Source: Nitrospirota bacterium (lineage in GTDB: Bacteria > Nitrospirota > Thermodesulfovibrionia > UBA6902 > DSMQ01). From it: a stretch of DNA of 64,000 nt. The translations under genes and the position numbers were made by a program. Below are positions 9,661 through 56,852 of this stretch, in pieces (the first letter of the stretch is position 1; each line of letters opens with the position of its first letter). The DNA is taken from NCBI GenBank assembly GCA_016208855.1, contig JACQXF010000078.1, forward strand, positions 3,491-67,490, written 5' to 3'. The notes below the pieces were generated by a model that did not search any database, was not told where the DNA came from, and saw nothing but the letters and a program-made list of their open reading frames with translations.

Positions 9661-9766
9661 AGGAATTTATTTTCGTCACTGCACAATACTGAAGGCGCTT
9701 TCTGCTAACTCTTCTGCCATTTGTCAGTTAGTCCTTATTATTCATAAATTATTATTATTTTTATTA

Positions 9767-9904
9767 AGGAAGCTGGCAGGGTATAGTTTTGAGCGGATTT
9801 TTTTGCTGATAAGTTCAGACAGGATGTCTGAACAAGCAAACGCCTCGCAAACGCACAGGATGTGCGTTGAGAATGAGCCGAAAAATTATACCCTGCCAGC
9901 TTCC
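9767..9904. repeat. 138-bp element bounded by perfect 18-bp terminal inverted repeats, containing two hairpins with identical GGA loops
   Basis: The arm ggaagctggcagggtata at 9767-9784 is the reverse complement of 9887-9904. Internal hairpins are ttcagaca-gga-tgtctgaa and aacgcaca-gga-tgtgcgtt. Confidence 0.6.
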
Positions 9905-10098
9905 TTATAGTTTATGAATAATCTGGGTTAGATATGTGTCTACGTTTCTCGGAAAATAAAAACGCACCTGCCTCCAACTCACTTGACTACGAAATACCTG
10001 AAAGAGAGAGATAATATCAGCGAAGAAGTCGAAAAAATATGCAGTTTGTTAAGGAAGGAGCAATTAATGTTAATAAGTAAGCCCGACCCCATGCTCCC

Positions 10099-15788: not shown

Positions 15789-16838
15789 ATGGATATTAAA
15801 TCGCTTGTAAAACCAAACGTCCGCTCCCTCAACGCCTATGAAGCTAAAGAAATTCCGTGCAAAGTAAAGCTTGACGCTAATGAGTCGCCTTATGGATTCA
15901 GAAATGCTATAAAAGCAGCAGATAAAATCCTTACCAACCGCTACCCTGACCCTGAGGCAAAAGCATTAAGAGGGCTCATCGCAAAAAAGTTTAAGGTAAA
16001 GCCGGAAAACCTCCTTTTTGGCAATGGCTCTGATGAGCTTATTTATTATCTGATTACTACATTTGGAGGGCCTGTGCTTTATCCAACCCCTACATTTTCA
16101 ATGTATGGAATTATTTCCCAGGCTCTTGGAGAGAGAAAGGTTGAGATTCCGCTTGATAGAGAGTTTGACCTTGATATTGAGAAGATGCTTGGCGCAATAA
16201 AAAAATTCAAGCCAAGATTAATCTTTATAAGCTCTCCTAATAACCCTACAGGCAATTGCTTCTCTTCAGAGAAGATTTTAAAAATCTTGTCACTCGTTAC
16301 TCGTCACTCGTCACTTGTTGTAGTTGACGAGGCATATCAGCCTTTTGCAAGCGAGGAAGGTTTTCTGCCCATGCTAAAGGATTATAAGAATCTCATTATC
16401 TTAAGAACTCTGAGCAAAATCGGGCTTGCAGGCTTAAGGGTAGGGTTTATGATAGCTGATGAAGAAATAATTAATGAGGCAAATAAAGTAAGGCTTCCCT
16501 TTAATATCAACTCACTCTCTCAGGCAGTAGCAGCAGAGGCATTGAAGCATAGAAAGGCTATGGACTCTTATATAAAGGCTGTCGCCTCTGAAAGAGAAAG
16601 GCTCTTTGATGAGCTCTCAAAGATAAACGGCACAACCCCCTATCCAACAGAGGCTAATTTTATATTGTTCAAGACAGAAAATCCTGATAGAATCTATAGC
16701 AGGCTTCTTAAGAAAGGTGTGCTTGTGAGAAACCTTAATAGTCTTGTTAAAGGATGCCTTAGGGTAACAGTGGGAACGCCGGAGGAAAACAGAGAGTTTC
16801 TTAATGCCATAAGAAAATGCCTCAAAAAGGAGAACTAA
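15789..16838 (+). CDS. hisC: Histidinol-phosphate aminotransferase
   Basis: Class-II aminotransferase fold (NPTG, the PLP Lys in SKIGLAGLRVG). Follows hisG. Contains an in-frame heptamer repeat at 16290-16317. Confidence 0.85.
   Translation: MDIKSLVKPNVRSLNAYEAKEIPCKVKLDANESPYGFRNAIKAADKILTNRYPDPEAKALRGLIAKKFKVKPENLLFGNGSDELIYYLITTFGGPVLYPTPTFSMYGIISQALGERKVEIPLDREFDLDIEKMLGAIKKFKPRLIFISSPNNPTGNCFSSEKILKILSLVTRHSSLVVVDEAYQPFASEEGFLPMLKDYKNLIILRTLSKIGLAGLRVGFMIADEEIINEANKVRLPFNINSLSQAVAAEALKHRKAMDSYIKAVASERERLFDELSKINGTTPYPTEANFILFKTENPDRIYSRLLKKGVLVRNLNSLVKGCLRVTVGTPEENREFLNAIRKCLKKEN
16290..16317 (+). repeat. In-frame heptamer tandem repeat inside hisC, identical 19-mer to the one in fabF
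   Basis: tcactcgttactcgtcactcgtcacttg shares actcgtcactcgtcacttg with fabF 58851-58869. Both translate to ...TRHSSL... Confidence 0.85.
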
Positions 16839-17433: not shown

Positions 17434-17467
17434 CGTAAGACGTGAAACGTAAGACGTAAGACGAAAC
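17434..17467. repeat. Intergenic heptamer tandem repeat (cgtaaga/acgtaag, 3 copies) downstream of hisB
   Basis: cgtaagacgtgaaacgtaagacgtaagacgaaac, followed by the hairpin gacgtaag...cttacgtc. Confidence 0.6.
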
Positions 17468-17544: not shown

Positions 17545-17645
17545 GTCGTCATTCCGGGCTTGAACCGGAATCCAGTATTTTCCTGATGTTTCTGGATTCC
17601 CGCTGGAGCCTGCCCTCGAATGTCGTAATCGGGGGCGGGAATGAC
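17545..17645. repeat. Hairpin-rich element related to both repeat families
   Basis: gtcattccgggcttgaaccggaatcc hairpin. The distal cgtaatcgggggcgggaatgac is the reverse complement of the core of element B. Confidence 0.5.
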
Positions 17646-23343: not shown

Positions 23344-24058
23344 TGACGGAAGAACGACTGATAAATTAAGAGGCATAAAGATTACGCGGAATTTTCTTAA
23401 TACGGCAGAAGGCTCGGTATTAATAGCGGTAGGAAATACAAAGGTAATCTGCACCGCCACTATAGAGGAGAAGGTTCCCCAGTTCCTTAAGGACACCGAT
23501 AGGGGATGGATTACCGCAGAATACTCAATGCTTCCGCGCTCAACGCCTGCAAGGATAACAAGGGAGTCAACAACAGGCAAGGTCGGCGGAAGGACTCATG
23601 AGATACAGAGGCTTATCGGCAGGACAATGCGCTCTGTTGTTGACATGAATGCGCTCGGGAAGCGCACCATATGGCTTGACTGCGATGTTATACAAGCAGA
23701 CGGAGGCACAAGGACAGCCTCAATAACAGGCGCATTCGTAGCCCTTTCAGATGCAGTAAGATACGCTGTTGAGAAGAAGATAATTGAGAAAAACCCCATC
23801 AGAGACTCTGTCGCAGCAGTAAGCGTTGGGGTTGTAAACGGCGAAGCGCTGCTTGATCTCTCCTATGCAGAGGATTCATCAGCCGAGGTTGATATGAATG
23901 TGGTGATGACAGGCTCAGGGAAGTTTATTGAGATTCAGGGCACTGCTGAGACTGCCCCTTTTGGCAAGGAGCATCTGCAGAAGATGCTTGAGCTTGCAGA
24001 GACAGGGATAAAGCAGATTATTGAGATACAGAAGAAGGCGTTAGAAAACAAAACCTGA
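23333..24058 (+). CDS. rph: Ribonuclease PH
   Basis: MRNDGR...[31 protein letters not shown] is the canonical RNase PH N-terminus. Full-length, 241 aa. Confidence 0.9.
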
Positions 24059-24068
24059 TTTCTATTAT

Positions 24069-24866
24069 CTATACTTTTCCTACATATTCAGACATAATCT
24101 GCATATTCTTTTTTAATGCCTTGTCAACTACCTGCGGCAAGAGTTTGTTTATCAGGACAAAGAATCTTTCAGGCGCCCCGATATATACCTCGTCTTTTTC
24201 CTTTTCAACAGCGCCTACAATAACAGACGCTACACTCTCAGGTTTGTCAAGGTGCATTTTTGTCCTCCCTGCCATCTCAAAAAATAGAGGCTTCTGAGAC
24301 GTCCTTGTCGCACGCGGAGCAACATAAGTAACGCCAACCCCGGTGCCCATAAGCTCCCTCCTCAGCGCCTCTGAAAATCCCCTCACCGCAAACTTGCTTG
24401 CAGAGTAGATACCAAACAGAGGGAAAGAAATACTTCCAAATATAGAGCCTATATTAACTATCCTGCCTCTTCTCTGCGTTATCATGTCAGGCAGTACTTT
24501 CTGTGTCAGCCTGATCGTACCATAAATATTGACAAGCAGCGTCTTCATCACCTCGTCTCCGCTATGGTCCACAATCAGCTTAAAGGGCATTATGCCGGCA
24601 CAGTTTACAAGCACGTCTATATTGCCAAGTTTTGTCTTTGAGTCGTTTAATACAACATTAATGCCATTGTCTGTAGTAATGTCTGCAGCTATAGCTGCGG
24701 ATTTAACGCTATGTCTTGCAATCTCAAGGCTTAGCTTTTCAAGTCTGTCTGCATTTTTGTCTATAAGGCACACATTAGAGCCGCTCTTGGCAAATGCCAT
24801 AGCTGTATAACTGCCAATGCCGCCTGATGCGCCTGTAATAATCACATTCTTGCCTTTAAGAGTCAT
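24069..24866 (-). CDS. Short-chain dehydrogenase/reductase (classical SDR)
   Basis: TGASGGIGS cofactor motif and YSASK catalytic motif. Confidence 0.8.
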   Translation of the reverse strand: MTLKGKNVIITGASGGIGSYTAMAFAKSGSNVCLIDKNADRLEKLSLEIARHSVKSAAIAADITTDNGINVVLNDSKTKLGNIDVLVNCAGIMPFKLIVDHSGDEVMKTLLVNIYGTIRLTQKVLPDMITQRRGRIVNIGSIFGSISFPLFGIYSASKFAVRGFSEALRRELMGTGVGVTYVAPRATRTSQKPLFFEMAGRTKMHLDKPESVASVIVGAVEKEKDEVYIGAPERFFVLINKLLPQVVDKALKKNMQIMSEYVGKV

Positions 24867-25657
24867 TTCAAGCCTCCTGCCTTATCGTCTTGCATCAGCC
24901 TTATTGCCTCTGCCTGCTCTTTTAAGTCCTCGACTACTTTTTCTTTGAGAACAGGGGCTGCAACAACAGAATTCAGATACCTGAGCGCCTCTTCATTGTT
25001 GCCGGACTTAATGAGCGCTTCTGCATAAAAAACTAAATTTGTCTTATTCTGAGGCGCAACTTCAACTGCCCTCTTTAGGCTCTCCAGCGCCTTTTTCTCT
25101 GACGGCCACCAGAGAACAAGAGGGATCTTTGGAGACTTATGGTGAACCCTTCCAAGCACCCTGTAGCCTGCGGCGTCCTCATAACGCTCATCAACTGATA
25201 TAATAATTTCGGATAAAGACTTTATCTTGTCTGCCACCCCCTTCTTAGCAGCCTCCATTATTCCCGAGACCTCTGCCCATCTGCCCCATGCGCCCGAAAG
25301 CCAGTAGCTTATCCCTGCGCTTTTTGGGTATCTTCTCAGGCCTTCTTCGCCGATAAATATTGCCTTGTTAAATAACTCCTGCTGTCTGTTCTTATCCAGC
25401 TTCACATACGTGCCGTAAAAATAAATACTTTTAAGCAGCCTCACATAAATGCCTTCTGACTTGTCTCCGCTGTCATAGGCGTCAGTAAATAGTTTTATTG
25501 CCTTCTCAATAGGCCTGCTGTCAGCCCATTCTCCGTTGTGCCCTTCTGCCCTTGCATCAAAGAAGGCGTCGCCCTTGGCAGTCAACTCTGATGTGCTGCT
25601 AAATGCCTTAGACGGCAAAAGACTTAAAAACATTATCACTATCAAAAATACTCTCAT
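24863..25657 (-). CDS. Secreted TPR-like hypothetical protein
   Basis: Signal peptide MRVFLIVIMFLSLLPSKAFS with a GGAGGA RBS. Helical repeat-like body. The ORF-track 5' extension to 25792 covers a palindromic repeat element and is unlikely to be coding. Confidence 0.5.
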   Translation of the reverse strand: MRVFLIVIMFLSLLPSKAFSSTSELTAKGDAFFDARAEGHNGEWADSRPIEKAIKLFTDAYDSGDKSEGIYVRLLKSIYFYGTYVKLDKNRQQELFNKAIFIGEEGLRRYPKSAGISYWLSGAWGRWAEVSGIMEAAKKGVADKIKSLSEIIISVDERYEDAAGYRVLGRVHHKSPKIPLVLWWPSEKKALESLKRAVEVAPQNKTNLVFYAEALIKSGNNEEALRYLNSVVAAPVLKEKVVEDLKEQAEAIRLMQDDKAGGLK

Positions 25658-25716
25658 ATATTCCTCCTTGCCTGATATTTCAACTACTGACTCACGCAAA
25701 ATTAATGCCCTATCTT

Positions 25717-25795
25717 GTGTCATTCCGGCTTGTCCGGAATCTTTCTTAAAGAAGGACTCCCGACAAGCGAGAGTGACAAACGTGGAGGACATTAC
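25717..25795. repeat. Palindromic element sharing the gtcattccgg-cttgtc-cggaatc hairpin
   Basis: gtcattccggcttgtccggaatc ... ggactcccgacaagcgagagtgac (imperfect inverted copy). Confidence 0.45.
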
Positions 25796-25806
25796 TTACA
25801 CGTTTA

Positions 25807-26862
25807 TCAATAAAGCTTTGCCTTCATCTGCCCAAGCATCTTCTGCCGCTCCTTTGCCGTATACATGGTTGACCAGTAACAGCCCGAACACTCGGCAACA
25901 TTGTCTTTCCATGCCTTCATATACTCTTTGTATGCCGCTTTATTGCTGAAGTCAAATATATTGAACTGCTTTGATGTCTTGCCGCGCACATTTATGCAGT
26001 CCATAACGGCTCCGTCAGCATCCACAATCAGCCTTGGCGGTATGCCGCCATTGAAACACTTCCAGTTAAGCCTGACTCCCAGCGAAGGCATATTCCTCAG
26101 GTATTCTTCTGTAGGCAAAATAAGCGCCCCTGCTTTTTTCATCTGGATAAGTCTTTCTGATATTAAAGACATCTTTTCTTCATGCGCCTCTGTGAGCCTA
26201 TAGCTGTTATCCATAATCTCTGTCTTCTCCCATTTGTCTCCCTTTCCCCATATTATTGGACATATATTTGTCCAGAAGCCGTTGTCATTCAGATACTCAA
26301 CTACATCCATGACATTGTCAATGTTGCAGGCTGTTATAACTATATTTCCGCATAAGTTTGGGACGCCCTTTTCTTTAAGCCTGTGAAGCATCTTAATGCC
26401 TGATGATGACTTTTTAAGATGCCCAAGCCCGTTGTCCTCTCCGCCAAGCACGTCAATACTTGCCACATATGTCTTAAGACCTGCATTGACAAGCTCATCA
26501 AGCCGGCTGTCCTTGAATGTAGAGTTTGACACGATAGAATACTCCATGCTTGTCTCTTCGTTTATGAATCTGATTAACTCCCCTATCCACGGCAGCACAG
26601 TAGGCTCGCCGCCTGCTATGTTTACAAACCTGATGCCAAGGGATTCCATTATCATTAGGGCTTCCTTCCACTCTTCAAGCCCAAGCTCTAAGTCAAATTG
26701 TGTCTTGATTATCTTGCAGTACTGGCATGACAAGTTGCACTTCCTCGTAAGATAAACCGAGCCTTCAATTACCTTTAATTTTGACAAATCATCAGGCGTA
26801 ATTTTAAACATCTCCCACAGTTTGTCAGCAGCAATGCTGATATTACCTGAGTCTGTAAGCAT
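25807..26862 (-). CDS. Radical SAM protein with a Cys-rich C-terminus
   Basis: CNLSCQYC (CxxxCxxC) near the N-terminus and CSGCYW near the C-terminus. GGAGGAGGA RBS before the second ATG, complement of 26860-26862, so the start is called at 26862. The first ATG at 26880 lacks an RBS. Confidence 0.7.
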   Translation of the reverse strand: MLTDSGNISIAADKLWEMFKITPDDLSKLKVIEGSVYLTRKCNLSCQYCKIIKTQFDLELGLEEWKEALMIMESLGIRFVNIAGGEPTVLPWIGELIRFINEETSMEYSIVSNSTFKDSRLDELVNAGLKTYVASIDVLGGEDNGLGHLKKSSSGIKMLHRLKEKGVPNLCGNIVITACNIDNVMDVVEYLNDNGFWTNICPIIWGKGDKWEKTEIMDNSYRLTEAHEEKMSLISERLIQMKKAGALILPTEEYLRNMPSLGVRLNWKCFNGGIPPRLIVDADGAVMDCINVRGKTSKQFNIFDFSNKAAYKEYMKAWKDNVAECSGCYWSTMYTAKERQKMLGQMKAKLY

Positions 26863-26900
26863 TATTCCTCCTCCATTCATTTAATAACTGCTATTGTGTC

Positions 26901-27056
26901 GAGGTTTTTGCAAAAGTCCTAAAAACCGCCCTCCCCCTTGAGGGGGGAGGGTTAGGGTGGGGGGTAAAAGATAGAAGTTATCAATGAGTTTTATTTTCAC
27001 CCTCCCCTTCATCCCCTCCCCTCAAGGGAGGGGAAACATACTTTTGCAAGAGCCTC
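26901..27056. repeat. MITE-like element A with imperfect ~17-bp terminal inverted repeats (gagg..ttgcaaaagt) and two G-rich palindromes
   Basis: Left end gaggtttttgcaaaagt, right end acttttgcaagagcctc. Internal ccctcccccttgaggggggaggg and cccctcccctcaagggagggg. Confidence 0.6.
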
Positions 27057-27061
27057 TATCT

Positions 27062-28543
27062 TTAATGACACTCAACATGTTTGCTTCCCATAAATTCAAT
27101 CTCTTTCTTGTAAAGTTTCATAATCTTCTGCCTGTTAAGCCTTCCTGACATGGTGATGGTGCCGTCAGCAGGATTAAAGGGTTTTTCAATCAAATAAATC
27201 CTCTTTGGCCTGGCATATCCAGGGAGACCTTTTTCAATTTTTGATAGGGAATTTTTAAGGGATGTTATGTCCCTGCGATCTTTATCCACATAAATAAGCG
27301 CCGACACATGGGGCATTGCCTCGCCAAAGACAAACGACTGTCTTACGCCCCAAGCCCTCTTTAGTTCTGCCTCAATCCATTCAGGCGATATATTTCTACC
27401 GGTGCTCGTAATTATTACATCCTTTTTTCTGCCTGTAACATAAAGAAATCCATCCTCATCAATATAGCCCACATCGCCTGTATGCCATACCCCGCTGCCT
27501 CCGCACCCTCCGCCTGTATAACCGGCCATTATAGAGCTGCCTGATACCATTATCTCGCCGTCATCAGCAATCGTTACGTTTAAATGGGGAAGCGGCCTTC
27601 CTACGCTTCCGATCTTCATCTCTTTTGCCGTATTTACAGATACCACAGACGTGCATTCGCTCAATCCATAGCCCTCATACACAGGAAGCCCTAACCTATG
27701 CGCTGTCTTGATTGTCTCTGCTGAAACCACTGCCCCGCCGCACGCTATAAAATTAAGAGGCTCTGCAATCCTCCGCTCCAGCCTCCATGAGCGTATGAGA
27801 TTTTCCAATATCTCGGGCACAAGAAGAAGCGCCGTAGGTTTTACCTCATTAAGTATCCTATAGAGATTTTTCCCTGACATATTCAAGCTGCACTCAGCAT
27901 GGTAGATAACCTCTGCCCCGCACATAATGGGCAGATAAAGGCCTGCGATATTCTCAAGAAGTACGCTCAGGGGGAGAATGGACAAGTACTTCTCTCCCTG
28001 TCTGACGTTTACAGCGTCTTTTAAAGAGCTAAGTACAGCATCAACCCCCTGCATTGTTATCATCACTCCTTTGGGAGCGCCTGTTGTCCCTGATGTATAA
28101 GTAATCTTAATAACATCACCTTCTCTAACTGTAGGCATTGCGGTTCTATGAGTGAGTTGTTTCTTTATCTCATGCAGAGAGGCAGTTTTATGTATAATGA
28201 GTTCATCTTTAATAAGCGGCGCTATGCTGCCTTCAACAACCGCCTTTTTAATTCCGCTGTCTCTGACAATGTGCATCATCTGTGAATATGAAAAAAACTC
28301 AGGTATCGGCACCACAATACATCCCTTCAATGTTAATGCTATGTCATAGACGCACCAAAGAGGATTGCTGCCAATCAGCAGACCGACCCTTTCTCCTTGA
28401 CTAAAGGGGGCAAGTCTTGATGCTGTAGTAATAATCGCACCCCTTAGCTCCCTGTAAGTGAGGCCTTCTCCGTCAGCCTGTCTTAGGGCAACACTGTGAG
28501 GCGCATCTTCTGCAAAATTATTTATAGCATTCCATACCAGCAT
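27062..28543 (-). CDS. AMP-dependent acyl-CoA/acyl-carrier ligase
   Basis: AMP-binding motif TYTSGTTGAPKGV, YGLSE, and the C-terminal GDVGYIDEDGFLYVTGRKKDVI hinge. Start ambiguous (GTG 28570 or ATG 28543). Confidence 0.75.
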   Translation of the reverse strand: MLVWNAINNFAEDAPHSVALRQADGEGLTYRELRGAIITTASRLAPFSQGERVGLLIGSNPLWCVYDIALTLKGCIVVPIPEFFSYSQMMHIVRDSGIKKAVVEGSIAPLIKDELIIHKTASLHEIKKQLTHRTAMPTVREGDVIKITYTSGTTGAPKGVMITMQGVDAVLSSLKDAVNVRQGEKYLSILPLSVLLENIAGLYLPIMCGAEVIYHAECSLNMSGKNLYRILNEVKPTALLLVPEILENLIRSWRLERRIAEPLNFIACGGAVVSAETIKTAHRLGLPVYEGYGLSECTSVVSVNTAKEMKIGSVGRPLPHLNVTIADDGEIMVSGSSIMAGYTGGGCGGSGVWHTGDVGYIDEDGFLYVTGRKKDVIITSTGRNISPEWIEAELKRAWGVRQSFVFGEAMPHVSALIYVDKDRRDITSLKNSLSKIEKGLPGYARPKRIYLIEKPFNPADGTITMSGRLNRQKIMKLYKKEIEFMGSKHVECH

Positions 28544-29272
28544 GGGATTGCCTTTTTTGCATATTTGCACTACCTAATCTAACGCCTGCATTAAATGCCG
28601 CCAGCATACCTGTATATAAGGGATTAGAGGGGTCTATAGAGAGCAGCTCCTCTAAATACTTATGCTCCTTTTCTATATCTATCCATGCAACGGCAGGGTC
28701 GCTCTCATAATATGTGCCCCAGGTATCCGGGGCGCCTGTCAGTTTTTCCTTTCTTGCACTAACAATGATGTTAAGCCTAATCCCAAGAGAGGCAAATAAA
28801 TTTCTTAATCCATTTGTTGCCGTGAATGTTATATACTGTGTATCCATGCAGTTAAGCAGCCCTGTAACTGCCGGGATTAGATAGTATCCGAACCCTGCTA
28901 TGTGTGACGCCATATTGCCGATCTCAGTGACACAGCCTCGTTTCACATGAGTCGGGGCATTAAATTTTTCCATGGAGATGTACCGCTCCACAGGCATATC
29001 AAGATATTGTTCACAAAAAAAGGCAGGAGAAGACGCTTTATTCATCCCAACACAACCAAGCATCTCTCCGCGCCATCCATTGATAGCGAGATAGCTCTGA
29101 CAATAAGGATGGATTTTCGCATTATATTTACGATAGTAGACGTCCATCACAAAGCCCTCAAGGATATGCCATTGCGGATTATCCCTCTCTATAAGTTCTA
29201 ATCCTGCCAACTCTCCTATTTGTTCTGTAAGCAATGTTTTTATTCTCCTAAAAGACGGTGTTGCTTTACACA
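28518..29272 (-). CDS. Putative GNAT-like N-acyltransferase (FeeM/N-acyl amino acid synthase-like), translationally coupled to the AMP-ligase
   Basis: A ~251 aa ORF from MCKATPSF... overlaps the ligase gene start. The assignment rests on context and size, not a recognised motif. The ORF-track extension to 29474 covers MITE-like repeats. Confidence 0.3.
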
Positions 29273-29382
29273 TGCTTTTATCATTTCCTAATTTTTGGGC
29301 TGTCCCGCAATTATCCGCCCACTCATCCCATAACACTTTTTTCATCATCTTGCCATTTCCTGATTTATTAATTATCTCAGTT

Positions 29383-29481
29383 GAGCCTCTTGCAAAAGTA
29401 TCGGGGAAATCGGTTTTGCCGTCATACCCGCCCCCGATTAAGACTTCGGGAATAACAAATAAAGACTTTTGCAAGAGCCTC
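29383..29481. repeat. MITE-like element B (same family)
   Basis: gagcctcttgcaaaagt ... acttttgcaagagcctc, flanking gtcatacccgcccccgattaag. Confidence 0.6.
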
Positions 29482-29618
29482 AGTCTATTTAGTATCGATA
29501 TAAGGCAGATATTGCAAAGGGCATGCCAGCAGAAATTACATTTAAAATTAGATGGTTAGCTTCTCAAGGGAAAATAAAGATGGGGGATCTGCCCTGATAG
29601 GCAGGTGAAATGCCCCGT

Positions 29619-41379: not shown

Positions 41380-42601
41380 AATGACCAAACAGATGCTTAC
41401 AGGAAATGCCTCAATTGCATGGGGTGTGAGGCTTTCAGATGTTGACTACATCCCTGCGTATCCTGTGACACCGCAGACTGAGATTATAGAGAGCCTCTCA
41501 AAATGGATAAGAGAGGGGCAGATGGATGCAGGGTTTGTCACAATGGACTCGGAGCATTCAATGATTACTGCTGCAGGGGCTGCCTCTGCAACAGGCGTAA
41601 GGGTATTTACTGCGACATCAAGCCAGGGGCTCATGTATGGATTTGAGATGCTTTACACGGTTTCCGGCTGGCGTGTGCCTTTTGTAATGGCAAATGTCTC
41701 AAGGGGGCTTTCCTCTCCTATTACGCTTGAGCCTGATCATAACGACATACTTGCAGCGCGTGACACAGGGTTTCTGCAGATTCACTGTGAGACGTGCCAG
41801 GAAGCGCTTGACTCCATACTTATTGCATACAGGCTTGCTGAGGATAAGAGTGTCCTCCTGCCTGCTATTGTCAATATGGATGGATTTTATCTCTCATTCA
41901 CACGCGAGCCTGTAGAGATTCCTAACAAGGAGATTGTAAGAGAATTTCTTCCTCCATATAAGCCAACTCATGCATTCTTCAGGGCATCACAACCGATGGC
42001 TCAAGGCGTAGCAGTGCTTGGCGGGCATATATATTCATATTTTAAATATCAGATGCATATGGCAAACAATAATGCCCTTAGCATCTATAAAGAGGTATCA
42101 GAGGAATTTAAAGAGACCTTTGGCAGGGGTTACGGGACAGTAGAAGGCTATATGCTTGATGACGCGGAATATGTGCTTATAATGAGCAACTCATTTTCAG
42201 CAATGGGCAAGGCAGCAGTAAAAAGGGCAAGAGAAAAAGGCTTGCGTATAGGCCTTCTAAGACTAAGGCTTCTCAGGCCTTTCCCTGAAGAAGATATAAG
42301 AGAGGCGCTTAAGGGACGGAAAGCCTCGGCTGTCATAGACCAAAACATAAGCGTTGGCAAAGGCGGGATATTGTACTCAGAAATAGCAGGTGTGCTTTAT
42401 AATGAAAAACAAAGACCTCTCCTGCTTTCATTCATCGGCGGGCTTGGAGGGAAAAATATAAGCGATGCAGAGTTTGATTTTATTTTTGACGCCATGATGA
42501 ATGCATACAGCACAGGCAATGTGCCACAGCCCGCTCTCCTATACACAGAGGCAGAGTTAGAGGAGATGGAAAGGCTGAAGAGGGTAGCAGGGAAAGGATA
42601 G
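41369..42601 (+). CDS. porA: 2-oxoacid:ferredoxin oxidoreductase alpha subunit
   Basis: GNASIAWG...YPVTPQTEI. Confidence 0.85.
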   Translation: MLGKMTKQMLTGNASIAWGVRLSDVDYIPAYPVTPQTEIIESLSKWIREGQMDAGFVTMDSEHSMITAAGAASATGVRVFTATSSQGLMYGFEMLYTVSGWRVPFVMANVSRGLSSPITLEPDHNDILAARDTGFLQIHCETCQEALDSILIAYRLAEDKSVLLPAIVNMDGFYLSFTREPVEIPNKEIVREFLPPYKPTHAFFRASQPMAQGVAVLGGHIYSYFKYQMHMANNNALSIYKEVSEEFKETFGRGYGTVEGYMLDDAEYVLIMSNSFSAMGKAAVKRAREKGLRIGLLRLRLLRPFPEEDIREALKGRKASAVIDQNISVGKGGILYSEIAGVLYNEKQRPLLLSFIGGLGGKNISDAEFDFIFDAMMNAYSTGNVPQPALLYTEAELEEMERLKRVAGKG

Positions 42602-46991: not shown

Positions 46992-47054
46992 TAGTGTCTG
47001 AAAATTTCAATGACGGACAGTGGTTCCCAGAAATAGAGATAGAAAACACTAATC

Positions 47055-47172
47055 ATTTAAAATCCCCCTCCCATTGCGGGAGGGGGCGAGGGGGAGGGGT
47101 AACCTTTTTGGTTATTCTTCACCCTCACCCTAACCCTCTCCCGTCAAGGGAGAGGGAACTTTTGGAGGTTCC
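47055..47172. repeat. Degenerate G-rich palindromic element E (same family)
   Basis: cccctcccattgcgggaggggg and ccctctcccgtcaagggagaggg, ending aacttttggaggttcc. Confidence 0.5.
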
Positions 47173-47295
47173 TATCTCTATTTTTCGGAGTGGTTAGACA
47201 AGAGATAGAGAAAGCAGCAAATAGAGAGTACAGAGAAATAGATAGGTAGAGCGTGCGTGAAAAGAGAGTAGCTGCTATGAGCCATGAGCCATAAG

Positions 47296-49191
47296 CTATG
47301 CTATTGCCTCTTTTTTAATGCTGTCAAGGAGTTCTGCTATCCTGCCTGATATTCCCTCCATATCCTTGTAAATCCTCTCTGCCTTTGCTTTGTCTCCTGA
47401 ATTGTGTACTGAAACCGCCTCTTTTGCCAGTGAGTGTATCTTTGCATGCGGCTCATCTATTGCTTTAAAAGAGTGTAAGTTTCCACACGTCTGCATTCCG
47501 TCTCCGAAATACCACTTTCCAAACCTGCAGTTGTGATGGTCAGGCAGCTGTGAAGGGTCAATGGCCGTGCTGTCCTTTAGGCATGATGCGATCTTCCCCA
47601 TAAACAACCTGTGGTCTGTCTTTGCAATATCAAGTATCTGAAGTCCGCTTTCCTTTGTTTTAAATCCTGATACGGCTGTCCTTAGCGCCTCTGCAGTAAG
47701 CGTTAATGAGTTAACCTCCCGTATCACATCATCAGACATCCTCTCTATCTCCTGTGCCGTGCTTGAGGTCTCCTCTACGCTCCTTGAAACCTCCTCCAGC
47801 GCTGCAGACTGCTCTTCCACGGCTGTGGCTATCTGTGTTATAAGGTCATTTACGCTTGCCACATTTGTCACTACATCTTGTGATGATTTATTGACCTTCT
47901 CTATCAGACTCACCGCATCTGCCGAGCCTGTCTGTATCTCTCCTATAATGCCTGTAATCTCTGATGATGCCTTTGACGTCCTCTCTGCAAGCTTCCTTAC
48001 CTCCTCTGCCACTACGGCAAAGCCCTTGCCGTGCTCCCCTGCGTTTGCTGCCTCAATTGCAGCATTTACAGCCAGAAGGTCAGTCTTATTTGCTATCTCA
48101 TTAATAAACATTATCACCTCTCCTATCTTCCTGCTCTTCTCACCCTGCTGGTTTATGATAGAAGATGTCTCCTTAACAAGCCCTGCCCCCTTTTCAACAG
48201 TCAAGGATGATTCCTTTGACAGTCCGCTTGCATTTGATGTTGACCTTGCTATCTCCGCGATAGTTGATGTAATTTCCTCTACTGCCGTGGCTATCTGAGA
48301 TGCCTGTGAAGACTGGTTTTGTGCGCTCTCTATTGTCTTCTGCGCCCTCACCCTTAATACATCCACTGTAGAGACCACATTATTTGCAGAAGCAACGATT
48401 CCATTTATCATGGCGTTGAAGGATTGAATCATTTTGTTCATGCTTTGAGCAAGTACGCCGATCTCATCCTTTGATTTTGTTTCCAGCGCCTCAACAGCCA
48501 GATTGCCTGTAGCTATCTCCTCGGCAGCCCTTGAAATATGCGTTAACGGCTTTGTAACGGAGTTTTTCAAATTCCTTACAAGAAGCACGCCACCCGTTCC
48601 TGCGAGACCGATGAGAAAGACAAATATCGTTGTTATCCTTAATCCATTCATTATCATCTTAAACATCTCGTCTAAGGCCTTTTCTCCTGCCCTATCCGAC
48701 TCATTAACAACAGCGGCAACCCCCTGGATTACCTTATCGCAGGCCTTATCATATTCGTCCATCACCATGTCTCCCTTTGCACGGTCTATAAGATATGCAT
48801 TGAACATTTTGACGCCTGTTTCCCACATCTTAGGGAGGTCATTTTTTAAAACTCCAAGTTTATTACTGATTCCCTTATCACCCTTCTTCAGTTCCAAAAG
48901 CCTGTCAATATCCTTGTATGCTGCATCAAGAGATGGCTTAGCCTCCTCGGCTATGACCTTTTTATCCTTAGTCAAAGAAGCGTCAGTAAAAAATTGCCAT
49001 ACATTGGCGACTTGAAACTGCAGGTCTTTCCCTGTCTTTATCTCCTCCTGCACGTAGCGGTAATTTGCGATATCGGCTTTGAACTCCCTCAGTTCACCAA
49101 TTACAAAGACAGCAAAAATAAGAAATATTGAAATGATAATAGCGAGGGAAAAGTATAGCTTTTTCTCAATTGTCAATTTTATAAAACCCAC
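47296..49191 (-). CDS. Methyl-accepting chemotaxis protein with a C-terminal CZB (chemoreceptor zinc-binding) domain
   Basis: TM helix, HAMP, MCP signalling domain, then [11 protein letters not shown]...H...H. GTG start with a GGAGG RBS at 49191; the ORF-track extension to 49284 has no RBS. Confidence 0.75.
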
Positions 49192-49482
49192 GTTCAACCT
49201 CCAAGTGCAATAAACTGATTTTCCCCCATTACCAGAAGCCAGCCATCTTCTGTCATCAATCCTGCTATGGCTGCCCCCCCCCAATCTTACTTTCTCTTTT
49301 CTTATCGGAAACTGCCATTAGAACTTTATTAACATTTTGTAAATTTGCTGTGAATTTTATTCTAATGAAGGTATAGCAGAGGCAGCCTGCTTCGGCTCAC
49401 CTCAGAAAATACAGTTAGTTAAAACTAAGGGAAGGCATTAAAGCCTTTTTAAAAGGCCTCTTCTGGATTATAATAAAAGCAA

Positions 49483-55694: not shown

Positions 55695-56852
55695 ATGTCC
55701 GTGCAACGGGCTCTTAACAGCAGGATAATAAATGCGCAGGCCATTGATATCAAGCCTCAGGACTACTTTGCTGCTGCCACAAAGGCAATTGATACAGGGT
55801 ATGAACTCTACTATAATGCAGTACCTGTGCTTGATAAACTTTTAAAGGAGCGTTTAGACAGCCTCTTGGTAAAGCGCAATACTGCCTTAGTTATATCAAT
55901 CTTTGGGATTCTTGCTGCCGTATATCTCTTCTCAGGTTTTTATTTTTCCGTAATGCATTCCTTGCAGAAGATGCAGGGGGCTGTGACACGCATAGCCGGC
56001 GGAGACCTTACAGAAAGCGTTGAGATTGACACAAGGGACGAACTCCGTCAGCTTGCATCAGCGATAAATGAGACAAGGCAGTCGCTCTCTAAAATGATAA
56101 ATCAGATTATCCAGTCAGCTAATAGCGTAGTCTCTTCTGTTGATATACTCAGGCCGAAATCAGAGAAGGCGTCAGGAGGGGCCGTAAAGCAGGCTGAAAG
56201 CGCAACTCAGATAGCCACGGCAGTAGAGGAGATTACGTCAACTATCGCAGAGATAGCAAGGTCAACCTCAAATGCAAGCGAGCTATCAAAAGAATCATCC
56301 AAGACTGTTGAAGAAGGGGCAGGGCTTATTAAGGAGACTTCCTCTATCATAAATGCACAGGGAGAGAAGAGCCAAAAAATAGGGGAGGTCATAAGGTTTA
56401 TTAATGAGATAGCGAGCAAGACTGACCTATTGGCTGTAAATGCGGCAATCGAGGCAGCAAATGCAGCAGAGCATGGCAAGGGCTTTGCCGTAGTGGCAGA
56501 GGAGGTAAGGAAGCTTGCAGAGAGGACATCAAAGGCCTCATCTGAGATTACAAGTATTATAGATGAGATACAGATGGGTTCAACTAATGCAGTGAGCCTG
56601 ATAGAGAAAGTCAACAAATCATCACAAGATGTAGTGTCAAATGTGGCAAACGTAAATGACCTTATAACACAGATAGCCACAGCCGTGGAAGAGCAGTCTG
56701 CAGCGCTGGAGGAGGTTTCAAGGAGCGTAGAGGAGACCTCAAGCACGGCACATGAGATAGAGAGGATGTCTGATGATGTGATACGGGAGGTTAACTCTTT
56801 AACGTTTACGGCAGAGGCACTAAAAACAGCTGTATCAGGATTTAAAACATAA
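55695..56852 (+). CDS. Methyl-accepting chemotaxis protein, 5'-truncated paralog of the 47296-49191 chemoreceptor
   Basis: Begins inside a periplasmic sensor domain (no TM1), then TM, HAMP, and a signalling domain ~90% identical at protein level to the CZB chemoreceptor. Ends right after the signalling domain with no CZB. Immediately downstream of the IS remnant. Confidence 0.6.
   Translation: MSVQRALNSRIINAQAIDIKPQDYFAAATKAIDTGYELYYNAVPVLDKLLKERLDSLLVKRNTALVISIFGILAAVYLFSGFYFSVMHSLQKMQGAVTRIAGGDLTESVEIDTRDELRQLASAINETRQSLSKMINQIIQSANSVVSSVDILRPKSEKASGGAVKQAESATQIATAVEEITSTIAEIARSTSNASELSKESSKTVEEGAGLIKETSSIINAQGEKSQKIGEVIRFINEIASKTDLLAVNAAIEAANAAEHGKGFAVVAEEVRKLAERTSKASSEITSIIDEIQMGSTNAVSLIEKVNKSSQDVVSNVANVNDLITQIATAVEEQSAALEEVSRSVEETSSTAHEIERMSDDVIREVNSLTFTAEALKTAVSGFKT

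Follow-up and report, generated by a model that had tools for sequence, protein, structure and literature searches.

Short intergenic elements in a Nitrospirota genome combine ISUnCu17-like 17-bp ends with hairpin interiors and are probably MITEs

Transposable elements of the miniature inverted-repeat type (MITEs) derived from the insertion sequence (IS) ISMac2, of the IS1182 family, have been described in Methanosarcina acetivorans; they are ~160 bp long and show a 4-bp direct repeat in one set (Kamoun et al. 2013, PMC3852290). Small intergenic inverted-repeat elements are also known to insert into or beside one another (PMC10969869). A hairpin repeat of another kind is the Neisseria Transformation Sequence (NTS), CGTCATTCCCGCGMAVGCGGGAATCYRG, which contains the dRS3 repeat; according to PMC11893778, from which the NTS motif is taken throughout, the GIY-YIG nuclease SsnA, which limits transformation, cuts it when the DNA is single stranded, and related "SRM" hairpins occur in many bacteria. 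Here we analyze 64,000 nt of a Nitrospirota bacterium contig (JACQXF010000078.1, assembly GCA_016208855.1; G+C content of 40 to 47%), called the window below, in which a family of short intergenic elements joins IS-type ends to hairpin interiors. Four of them, A to D, are very probably MITEs that depend on an ISUnCu17-like transposase. With high confidence, we further assign them to type II, as nonautonomous, noncoding elements that keep only the 17-bp ends of an ISUnCu17-like IS. The family is genuine and apparently undescribed; the kind of element is well known. Our literature search found no prior description of the end sequence, of ISUnCu17, or of MITEs in Nitrospirae, Thermodesulfovibrio, or Thermodesulfovibrionia.

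Two kinds of interior are present, a G-rich double hairpin (G-type; A, D, and E) and a pair of NTS/dRS3-like hairpins (H-type; B and C). The elements are listed by window position; handles beginning with L denote loci fetched from other genomes.

26901-27056, MITE A: G-type, full length, 156 bp
29383-29481, MITE B: H-type, 99 bp, with an internal deletion
32533-32609, MITE C: H-type, 77 bp, with a larger internal deletion, in the orientation opposite to B
34209-34280, MITE D: internally deleted A-type derivative, 72 bp, between purH and purD
47053-47172, element E: G-type interior in reverse orientation, with stems CCCTCTCCC/GGGAGAGGG as in L024
17545-17645, element F: inverted pair of NTS-like hairpins (CGTCATTCC..GGAATCCAG and its inverse), no IS-type ends
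25719-25777, small inverted pair of NTS-like hairpins (GTCATTCCGG..CCGGAATC / ACTCCCG..CGAGAGTGAC), no IS-type ends

In its full form, the family end is the 17-bp sequence GAG(G/C)(C/T)TCTTGCAAAAGT. Such ends are nonrandom in the window: the core 13-mer CTCTTGCAAAAGT has 4 exact occurrences, or 10 when up to 2 mismatches are allowed, while dinucleotide-preserving shuffles of the 64-kb sequence (n = 100) gave 3.28 ± 1.9 occurrences and reached 10 in 0 of 100 cases. An inverted pair of ends with 0 to 2 mismatches bounds A, B, and C. In A, the left end (26901-26917, GAGGTTTTTGCAAAAGT) has 2 mismatches and the right end (27040-27056) is perfect; both ends of B are perfect (29383-29399 and 29465-29481); C has a perfect left end and a right end, GAGCCAATTGCAAAAGT, with 2 mismatches. 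D has one good end (left, 34209-34225) and one decayed end (right, 34264-34280, ACTTTTGAAATTTATTT). The sequence-only reading of this stretch had placed all of its listed copies correctly to within a few bases, and its statement that they are intergenic holds for all six, which fall between open reading frames (ORFs) with ordinary Pfam assignments. Its count fared less well. It claimed at least five bounded copies plus a sixth, related one at 17545-17645; A, B, and C are bounded in full and D in part, but E has no left end, and F has a hairpin module in common with B and C but no ends. Since neither E nor F is bounded by the repeat, the real count is four end-bearing copies, spaced within 7.4 kb, while E, F, and 25719-25777 are hairpin modules without full IS-type ends. 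The elements (72 to 156 bp) are noncoding, and the ORFs that overlap them are artefactual extensions only.

The parent of these ends was found by a scan with the 17-mer over one genome per species (GTDB representatives), which gave at least 119 loci; all figures for pairs below refer to the matches listed. Chance alone should give a 17-mer that has two two-fold degenerate positions ~280 matches when both strands of 596 Gb are counted. Single matches, for example, in Listeria or Bifidobacterium, are therefore meaningless, and the informative signal is pairing, defined as a forward end followed by a reverse end within 40 to 2600 nt. There were 52 such pairs, comprising 46 short elements (82 to 338 bp), four full-length IS, and two spurious long pairs. 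The full-length IS (L076, L016, L072, and L074) measure 1375 to 1489 bp. ORFs were read in two of them, L072 (Trichlorobacter) and L074 (Nitrospirota), both of which carry the exact window 17-mer; their products, 380 and 392 aa long, have the Pfam domains DUF772 and DDE_Tnp_1. Across the IS relatives, the transposase ranges from 368 to 392 aa. The two long pairs, L115 and L020, were rejected as IS and represent neighboring 39-bp mini-elements. The smallest form of the family, in which two ends lie 5 nt apart, was seen as 39-bp minimal elements in a Treponematales metagenome-assembled genome (MAG), at the following positions within the loci.

L115, 76-114 and ~1992-2030: 39-bp minimal elements
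L020, 1504-1542: 39-bp minimal element
L055, 2050-2088: 39-bp minimal element

Transposase relatives of 368 aa number in the thousands in public data and lie mostly on ~1.4-kb contigs, the expected look of a collapsed multicopy IS in metagenome assemblies. At 48% and 44.6% identity, respectively, the nearest annotated relatives are plasmid-encoded proteins labeled "IS1182 family transposase" and "IS1182-like element ISUnCu17 family transposase." A copy of ISUnCu17 on the Aeromonas caviae IncP plasmid pKAM643_2 is 1483 bp long, has the ends GAGCCTCTTGCAAAA and TTTTGCAAGAAGCTC, and is flanked on both sides by ATGA. Assignment to the IS5 group, suggested by the 4-bp duplication and the GA start, was set aside; the NCBIfam IS5 and IS1182 models fit equally poorly, and the ISUnCu17 annotation was followed.

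Target-site duplications, which the sequence-only reading had named as a check, supplied a clear 4-bp signal. A perfect 4-bp direct repeat lies just outside the ends in 34 of the 52 pairs; controls shifted by 1 to 5 nt gave 0 to 5 matches, and repeat lengths other than four gave 0 to 4. The duplicated tetramers are diverse; at the position one base beyond them, C is weakly favored. When the 104 ends are aligned, positions 1 to 17 are 81 to 100% conserved, except for the variable positions 4 and 5 (G/C and C/T), and conservation drops sharply from position 18. The ends thus hold up in an alignment far wider than the window, a point on which the sequence-only reading had itself allowed for failure. 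Locally, the flanks of C (TTTA/TTTA) are a perfect 4-bp duplication, and those of A (TGTC/TATC) and B (AGTT/AGTC) match at three of four positions. The sequence-only description of a MITE-like family is borne out by ends that elsewhere bound transposase-bearing IS, by the 4-bp duplication, and by a noncoding, multicopy, and intergenic character.

The interior DNA has an origin other than the parent IS and is built of two kinds of hairpin module. Neither module is present in the subterminal regions of the four full-length IS, and because only the ends are held in common with the parent, the window elements classify as type II MITEs by the definition in PMC10969869. Clustering of the interiors of the 46 short elements together with the window copies gave several subfamilies, of which two occur in the window. 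The two interior types noticed in the initial reading are therefore both present but define two subfamilies rather than variants of one element. A-type and H-type elements with ends recur in other phyla.

G-type elements are laid out as an end, a CCCTCCCCC-loop-GGGGGAGGG hairpin, a TTAGGGTGGGGG tail, a variable center, the inverse of the tail and hairpin, and the second end. In A, hairpin 1 spans 26929-26951, with the G-rich tail reaching 26964, and hairpin 2 spans 27014-27034. Whole end-bearing G-type elements were found in L064 (a Deltaproteobacteria MAG), L087 (a 3.7-Mb chromosome-level assembly), and L024 (Nitrospirota); A is 71 to 85% identical to these three elements, which are bounded by the terminal inverted repeats. 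D has a single G-rich hairpin (34231-34253), and 57 nt of it are 93% complementary to the right half of A. It consists of the first 46 nt of the reverse complement of A plus the last ~25 nt, which identifies it as an internal deletion derivative of A. E is homologous to the whole interior of A and belongs to a different sublineage; in E, as in L024, the CCCTCTCCC/GGGAGAGGG stem is changed on both sides relative to A. The left end of E is absent and the remnant of its right end carries a 3-nt deletion (ACTTTTG---GAGGTTC), and we read E as a probable fossil copy whose terminal repeats have been lost or have decayed. A perfect 12-nt inverted repeat (47031-47042, AAATAGAGATAG; 47172-47183, CTATCTCTATTT) brackets E, and its surroundings are rich in AGAGATAG-like repeats. 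These flanks are inverted, and duplication by a transposon would give direct ones.

The full H-type form is a 143-bp element in L098 (Thermodesulfovibrionia), which runs from an end through ~20 nt, GTCATACCCGCGAAGGCGGGTATCCAG, a spacer, CTGGATTCCCG...CGGGAATGAC, and 8 nt to the other end. B aligns to it in two pieces at ~90% identity, and C, inserted in the other orientation, has a different central deletion. B, C, and D are shortened by internal deletion relative to longer masters that other genomes contain. F and the pair B and C have just one thing in common, the GTCATTCC...GGAATGAC hairpin module; the interior of F is homologous to that of H-type MITEs and is closest to an end-bounded element in L051. 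Both F and the smaller unit at 25719-25777 contain the H-type hairpin pair without recognizable ends. The latter (GTCATTCCGGCTTGTCCGGAATC ... ACTCCCGACAAGCGAGAGTGAC) lies upstream of a TPR gene and was absent from the initial list of copies. In the fetched DNA, 10 of 15 G sites and 8 of 19 H sites lie more than 120 nt from any end, proportions that are not meaningful because the loci were selected for having ends. Modules without ends could be either decayed MITEs or independent hairpin repeats that have been packaged between IS ends.

The H module resembles NTS/dRS3 in its outer sequence (CGTCATTCC ... GGAATCCAG) and in its hairpin layout. The 28-mer NTS with up to 3 mismatches was found at 11 sites in the fetched loci, 4 of which are inside end-bounded short elements; two sites, in L060 and L081, have a single mismatch, and the L081 site is inside a MITE. 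Within the window, there was no NTS match within 3 mismatches and no hit to the strict SRM pattern. F shares all 18 outer NTS positions and has a different inner stem, and the core of C (CGTCATACCCGCGAAGGCGG) shares 19 of the first 20 positions of the motif and is then truncated. Neither the window nor 126 loci gave a candidate for a small GIY-YIG-like ORF in a six-frame motif scan, which is a crude and weak test. Unlike the NTS, the window hairpins are arranged in inverted pairs, and IS ends enclose some of these; such enclosure finds no mention in the available portion of PMC11893778. The resemblance of the H module to the NTS is clear in sequence; membership in the NTS or Ssn-motif group is not established.

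Three of the end-bearing copies contain candidate transcription signals. A consensus scan found a terminator-like hairpin with a T-run, CGGTTTTTAG, on the minus strand of A (26951-26929), downstream of the minus-strand acyl-CoA ligase gene and upstream of a radical SAM gene. A second pattern match of this kind, 34231-34253 with the T-run TATTTTAGGG, is on the plus strand of D, between purH and purD; both run in the direction of local transcription. A sigma-70-like -35/-10 match, TTGGCT-18-TATAAT, extends across the right end of C, which is mutated, and is upstream of purH. All of the elements fold far better than shuffled controls (z of -2.7 to -5.9), with RNA folds of -73.6 kcal/mol for A (z = -5.3) and -65 kcal/mol for E (z = -5.9) and z values of -4.65 for B and -4.5 for F; strong folding is automatic for any inverted-repeat element. 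At gathering thresholds, no Rfam family matched anywhere in the window, and F had no match even with permissive E values; the matches of A at permissive E values, a generic hairpin (miRNA precursor) below threshold, were discarded. Motifs for a G-quadruplex (G4), defined as four runs of at least 3 G with loops of 1 to 7 nt, number four in the window, all in A and E; E holds two, and those in A are as follows.

26942-26964, plus strand: G4 motif
27000-27021, minus strand: G4 motif

Each G4 motif overlaps a hairpin arm, and the hairpin and the predicted G4 would therefore compete. The roles proposed in the sequence-only reading (terminator, G4, and recombination site) are compatible with these sequences. 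The most plausible effect on the host would be partial transcription termination at the G-rich hairpins with T-runs in A and D, and we place low confidence in any specific effect, including any on neighboring genes.

The position of the elements was compared with the closest relative fetched, L123, whose PurH is 94% identical and whose DNA is 85 to 89% identical at the nucleotide level. L123 is collinear with the window except for three segments present in the window only.

24045-32640: 8.6 kb, opposite strand, between rph and purH
34219-34297: MITE D
37734-38791: ~1 kb, four small minus-strand ORFs

The first segment encodes a short-chain dehydrogenase, a TPR protein, a radical SAM protein, an acyl-CoA ligase, a thermostable-hemolysin-family protein, a sigma-54 response regulator, and a histidine kinase. 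A (between the radical SAM and ligase genes) and B (between the hemolysin-family and response regulator genes) are inside it, and C, after the histidine kinase gene, is ~30 nt from its right edge. In L123, rph and purH are 41 nt apart; the spacer there starts with GGCTCTTAAC and ends with ACTTTCAAGTTAG, which may be a pair of ends that has decayed. On either side of a two-gene cassette lie A and B; the cassette comprises the acyl-CoA ligase gene (27062-28570; 44% identity to its best outside homologue) and the T_hemolysin-family gene (28518-29345), and the whole could be a MITE-flanked composite element; its outer flanks, TGTC and AGTC, match at three of four positions. For an exosortase-type system made up of these genes and the neighboring two-component system, all NCBIfam matches were below cut-off. 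The four ORFs of the third segment look like two toxin-antitoxin pairs; their products are the toxin HicA, an 87-aa partner without assignment, a DUF4258 protein, and an antitoxin with weak likeness to MqsA.

D is absent from L123, where purH and purD are 4 nt apart and the whole spacer is missing. In two more distant relatives, this spacer is occupied by other G-rich palindromic elements (L124, 9548-9645; L125, 9555-9715), the one in L125 being a G-type interior without ends and with an insertion in the second hairpin. L123 may thus equally have suffered a deletion, and the purH-purD junction appears to have been occupied repeatedly. The coincidence of elements with window-only segments is anecdotal; it fits either a recombination hotspot or a MITE-flanked composite, and the events could have run in either direction. 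In an independent short-read assembly of the same organism (SRR12113402; contigs 100% identical to the window), B is spanned, and contigs end at 32560/32580 inside C and at 34243 in the hairpin loop of D, breaks that fit repeated or palindromic sequence.

Other repeats are also present in the window. A 143-bp element at 9765-9907, unrelated to this family and with one window copy, has 26-nt terminal inverted repeats that are 96% complementary (TAAGGAAGCTGGCAGGGTATAGTTTT/AAAATTATACCCTGCCAGCTTCCTTA) and may be a second MITE family; the repeats begin with TA at the outer end, and this TA could instead be a 2-bp target duplication. Short tandem arrays at 16289-16315, 17434-17463, 58765-58867, 58934-58961, and 37024-37054 are built of the 7-nt units GTCACTC, CGTAAGA, ACAGAAT, and AAAACTC and the 16-nt unit TGTCAGGCTATCAGAA, looser relatives of which are at 42593, 44264, 45900, and 53739. 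A 756-nt inverted duplication (47656-48411 and 56094-56849; 85% complementary) probably reflects paralogous chemoreceptor genes, since one arm is inside a methyl-accepting chemotaxis protein gene (47296-49284).

We favor a model in which a full-length copy would provide, in trans, the DDE transposase; this would bind both ends, excise or copy the element, and insert it at a 4-bp staggered cut, whose repair would leave the 4-bp direct duplication; copies would then persist mainly between genes. We infer both this mobilization in trans and the timing of activity. Ends would decay once copies no longer move, which would explain D, E, and perhaps F. Several observations weigh against the MITE interpretation. 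No transposase gene was detected in the 64-kb window (tblastn; best E value of 0.74), and only one of the four local copies, C, has a perfect duplication. The curated NCBIfam IS1182 model gives the transposase 53 to 59 bits against a cut-off of 270, with about the same for the IS5 models, and the IS1182 label consequently rests on the named relatives with 44 to 48% identity. Insertion and deletion of D cannot be told apart at the purH-purD junction, because L123 lacks the entire spacer and there is no clean empty site. Finally, several loci are on short MAG contigs whose taxonomic bins may be wrong; paired ends are also found on large contigs of Nitrospirota, Desulfobacterota, Acidobacteriota, and Spirochaetota.

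It is conceivable, if improbable, that the hairpin modules are the real units, REP/BIME-like or Ssn-related and spread by, e.g., a RAYT-type or GIY-YIG enzyme, and that the IS merely inserts beside them. Both modules do occur without ends, in the fetched loci, in E, F, and 25719-25777, and in L125, where the site is again the purH-purD junction; 1 to 3 mismatches separate H modules of related loci from the 28-nt NTS motif; and the hairpins show compensatory changes, from C-G to T-A in the G hairpin and from ATTCCC/GGGAAT to ATACCC/GGGTAT in L098. Decay of the ends explains end-less copies equally well, however, and E retains a recognizable remnant. Whole units of ends plus interior are conserved across genomes with 4-bp duplications, which is the signature of DDE transposition, and the negative scans for a GIY-YIG-like ORF (a weak motif scan) and for the strict SRM pattern (in the window) also speak against independent units. 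Overall, this explanation complements the MITE account more than it excludes it.

That the palindromes are instead host operators, terminators, or attenuators that evolved in place and are alike because one host factor recognizes them seems very improbable. The terminator-like sites in A (minus strand) and D (plus strand), the sigma-70-like match at C, and the strong folding would all be expected of such sites, but the linkage of the same ends to transposase-bearing elements contradicts it, as do the 4-bp duplications and the occurrence beside unrelated genes in several phyla; D is absent from L123, Rfam offers no match, and the folding comes with any inverted repeat. Least credible of all is the derivation of the copies from one larger IS or prophage broken by rearrangement, a possibility that the sequence-only reading had raised against itself. 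The presence of A, B, and C inside or at the edge of the 8.6-kb segment missing from L123 is in its favor, yet each copy is complete from end to end with inverted ends, D and E are outside that segment, ordinary cellular genes (acyl-CoA ligase, two-component system, and purH) separate the copies, and no transposase or phage gene is present in the window.

MITEs mobilized by an ISUnCu17-like transposase, the interpretation preferred here, would be a clear example of type II MITEs with an interior of independently recurring hairpins that is not IS-derived. Modest extra interest comes from this cargo, from the NTS/Ssn likeness of one of its two kinds, and from the placement of the elements where the genome differs from its nearest relative. 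A more speculative idea, which we regard as rather unlikely, is that functional hairpin cargo travels between IS1182-type ends, which would serve as its shuttle; the cargo would be NTS-like in one subfamily and a G-rich terminator or G4 in the other. Hitchhiking on a DDE transposase that acts in trans would then be one way for such repeats to multiply and to pass from phylum to phylum, and E, F, 25719-25777, and the L125 element would be leftovers whose ends decayed while the hairpins were retained. Were the cargo functional, the family would tie the spread of hairpin repeats that affect the host to DDE transposition. Accessory DNA, for example, the 8.6-kb segment that ends at C or the two-gene cassette between A and B, may also be gained or lost by recombination at these copies. 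The family and both cargos recur in MAGs of Nitrospirota, Desulfobacterota, Acidobacteriota, Verrucomicrobiota, and Spirochaetota, a wide distribution in anaerobic sediment and groundwater lineages. For annotation, these elements matter because they break short-read assemblies and yield spurious ORFs; the 17-mer with a 4-bp duplication is a simple diagnostic.

Among known elements, the Correia elements of Neisseria and the SPRITE, BOX, and RUP elements of Streptococcus pneumoniae are, like the window copies, small intergenic inverted repeats, and their hairpins can work as terminators or promoters or be sites of RNA processing. They are unrelated to the window copies in sequence and in parent element. 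Correia elements duplicate TA. The Chunjie MITE of Geobacter uraniireducens, from a neighboring ecological and taxonomic group, also has stable hairpins and inserts in operons; it is A+T-rich, 178 to 235 bp long, and has 21-bp ends and 9-bp duplications (Chen et al. 2008, as summarized in PMC3184786), on which grounds membership in that family was rejected. The ISMac2-derived MITEs are the same kind of element as A to D, with an archaeal host and inverted repeats of 25 to 26 bp; the comparison is by description, and no kinship in sequence is expected. ISUnCu17 and its relatives are autonomous, 1.38 to 1.49 kb long, and carry a transposase gene, unlike the 72- to 156-bp window elements, which have only the ends in common with them. 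In those ends, the match is essentially one of identity (GAGCCTCTTGCAAAA.., 15 of 17 positions at the left end of ISUnCu17), and the 4-bp duplication is shared as well.

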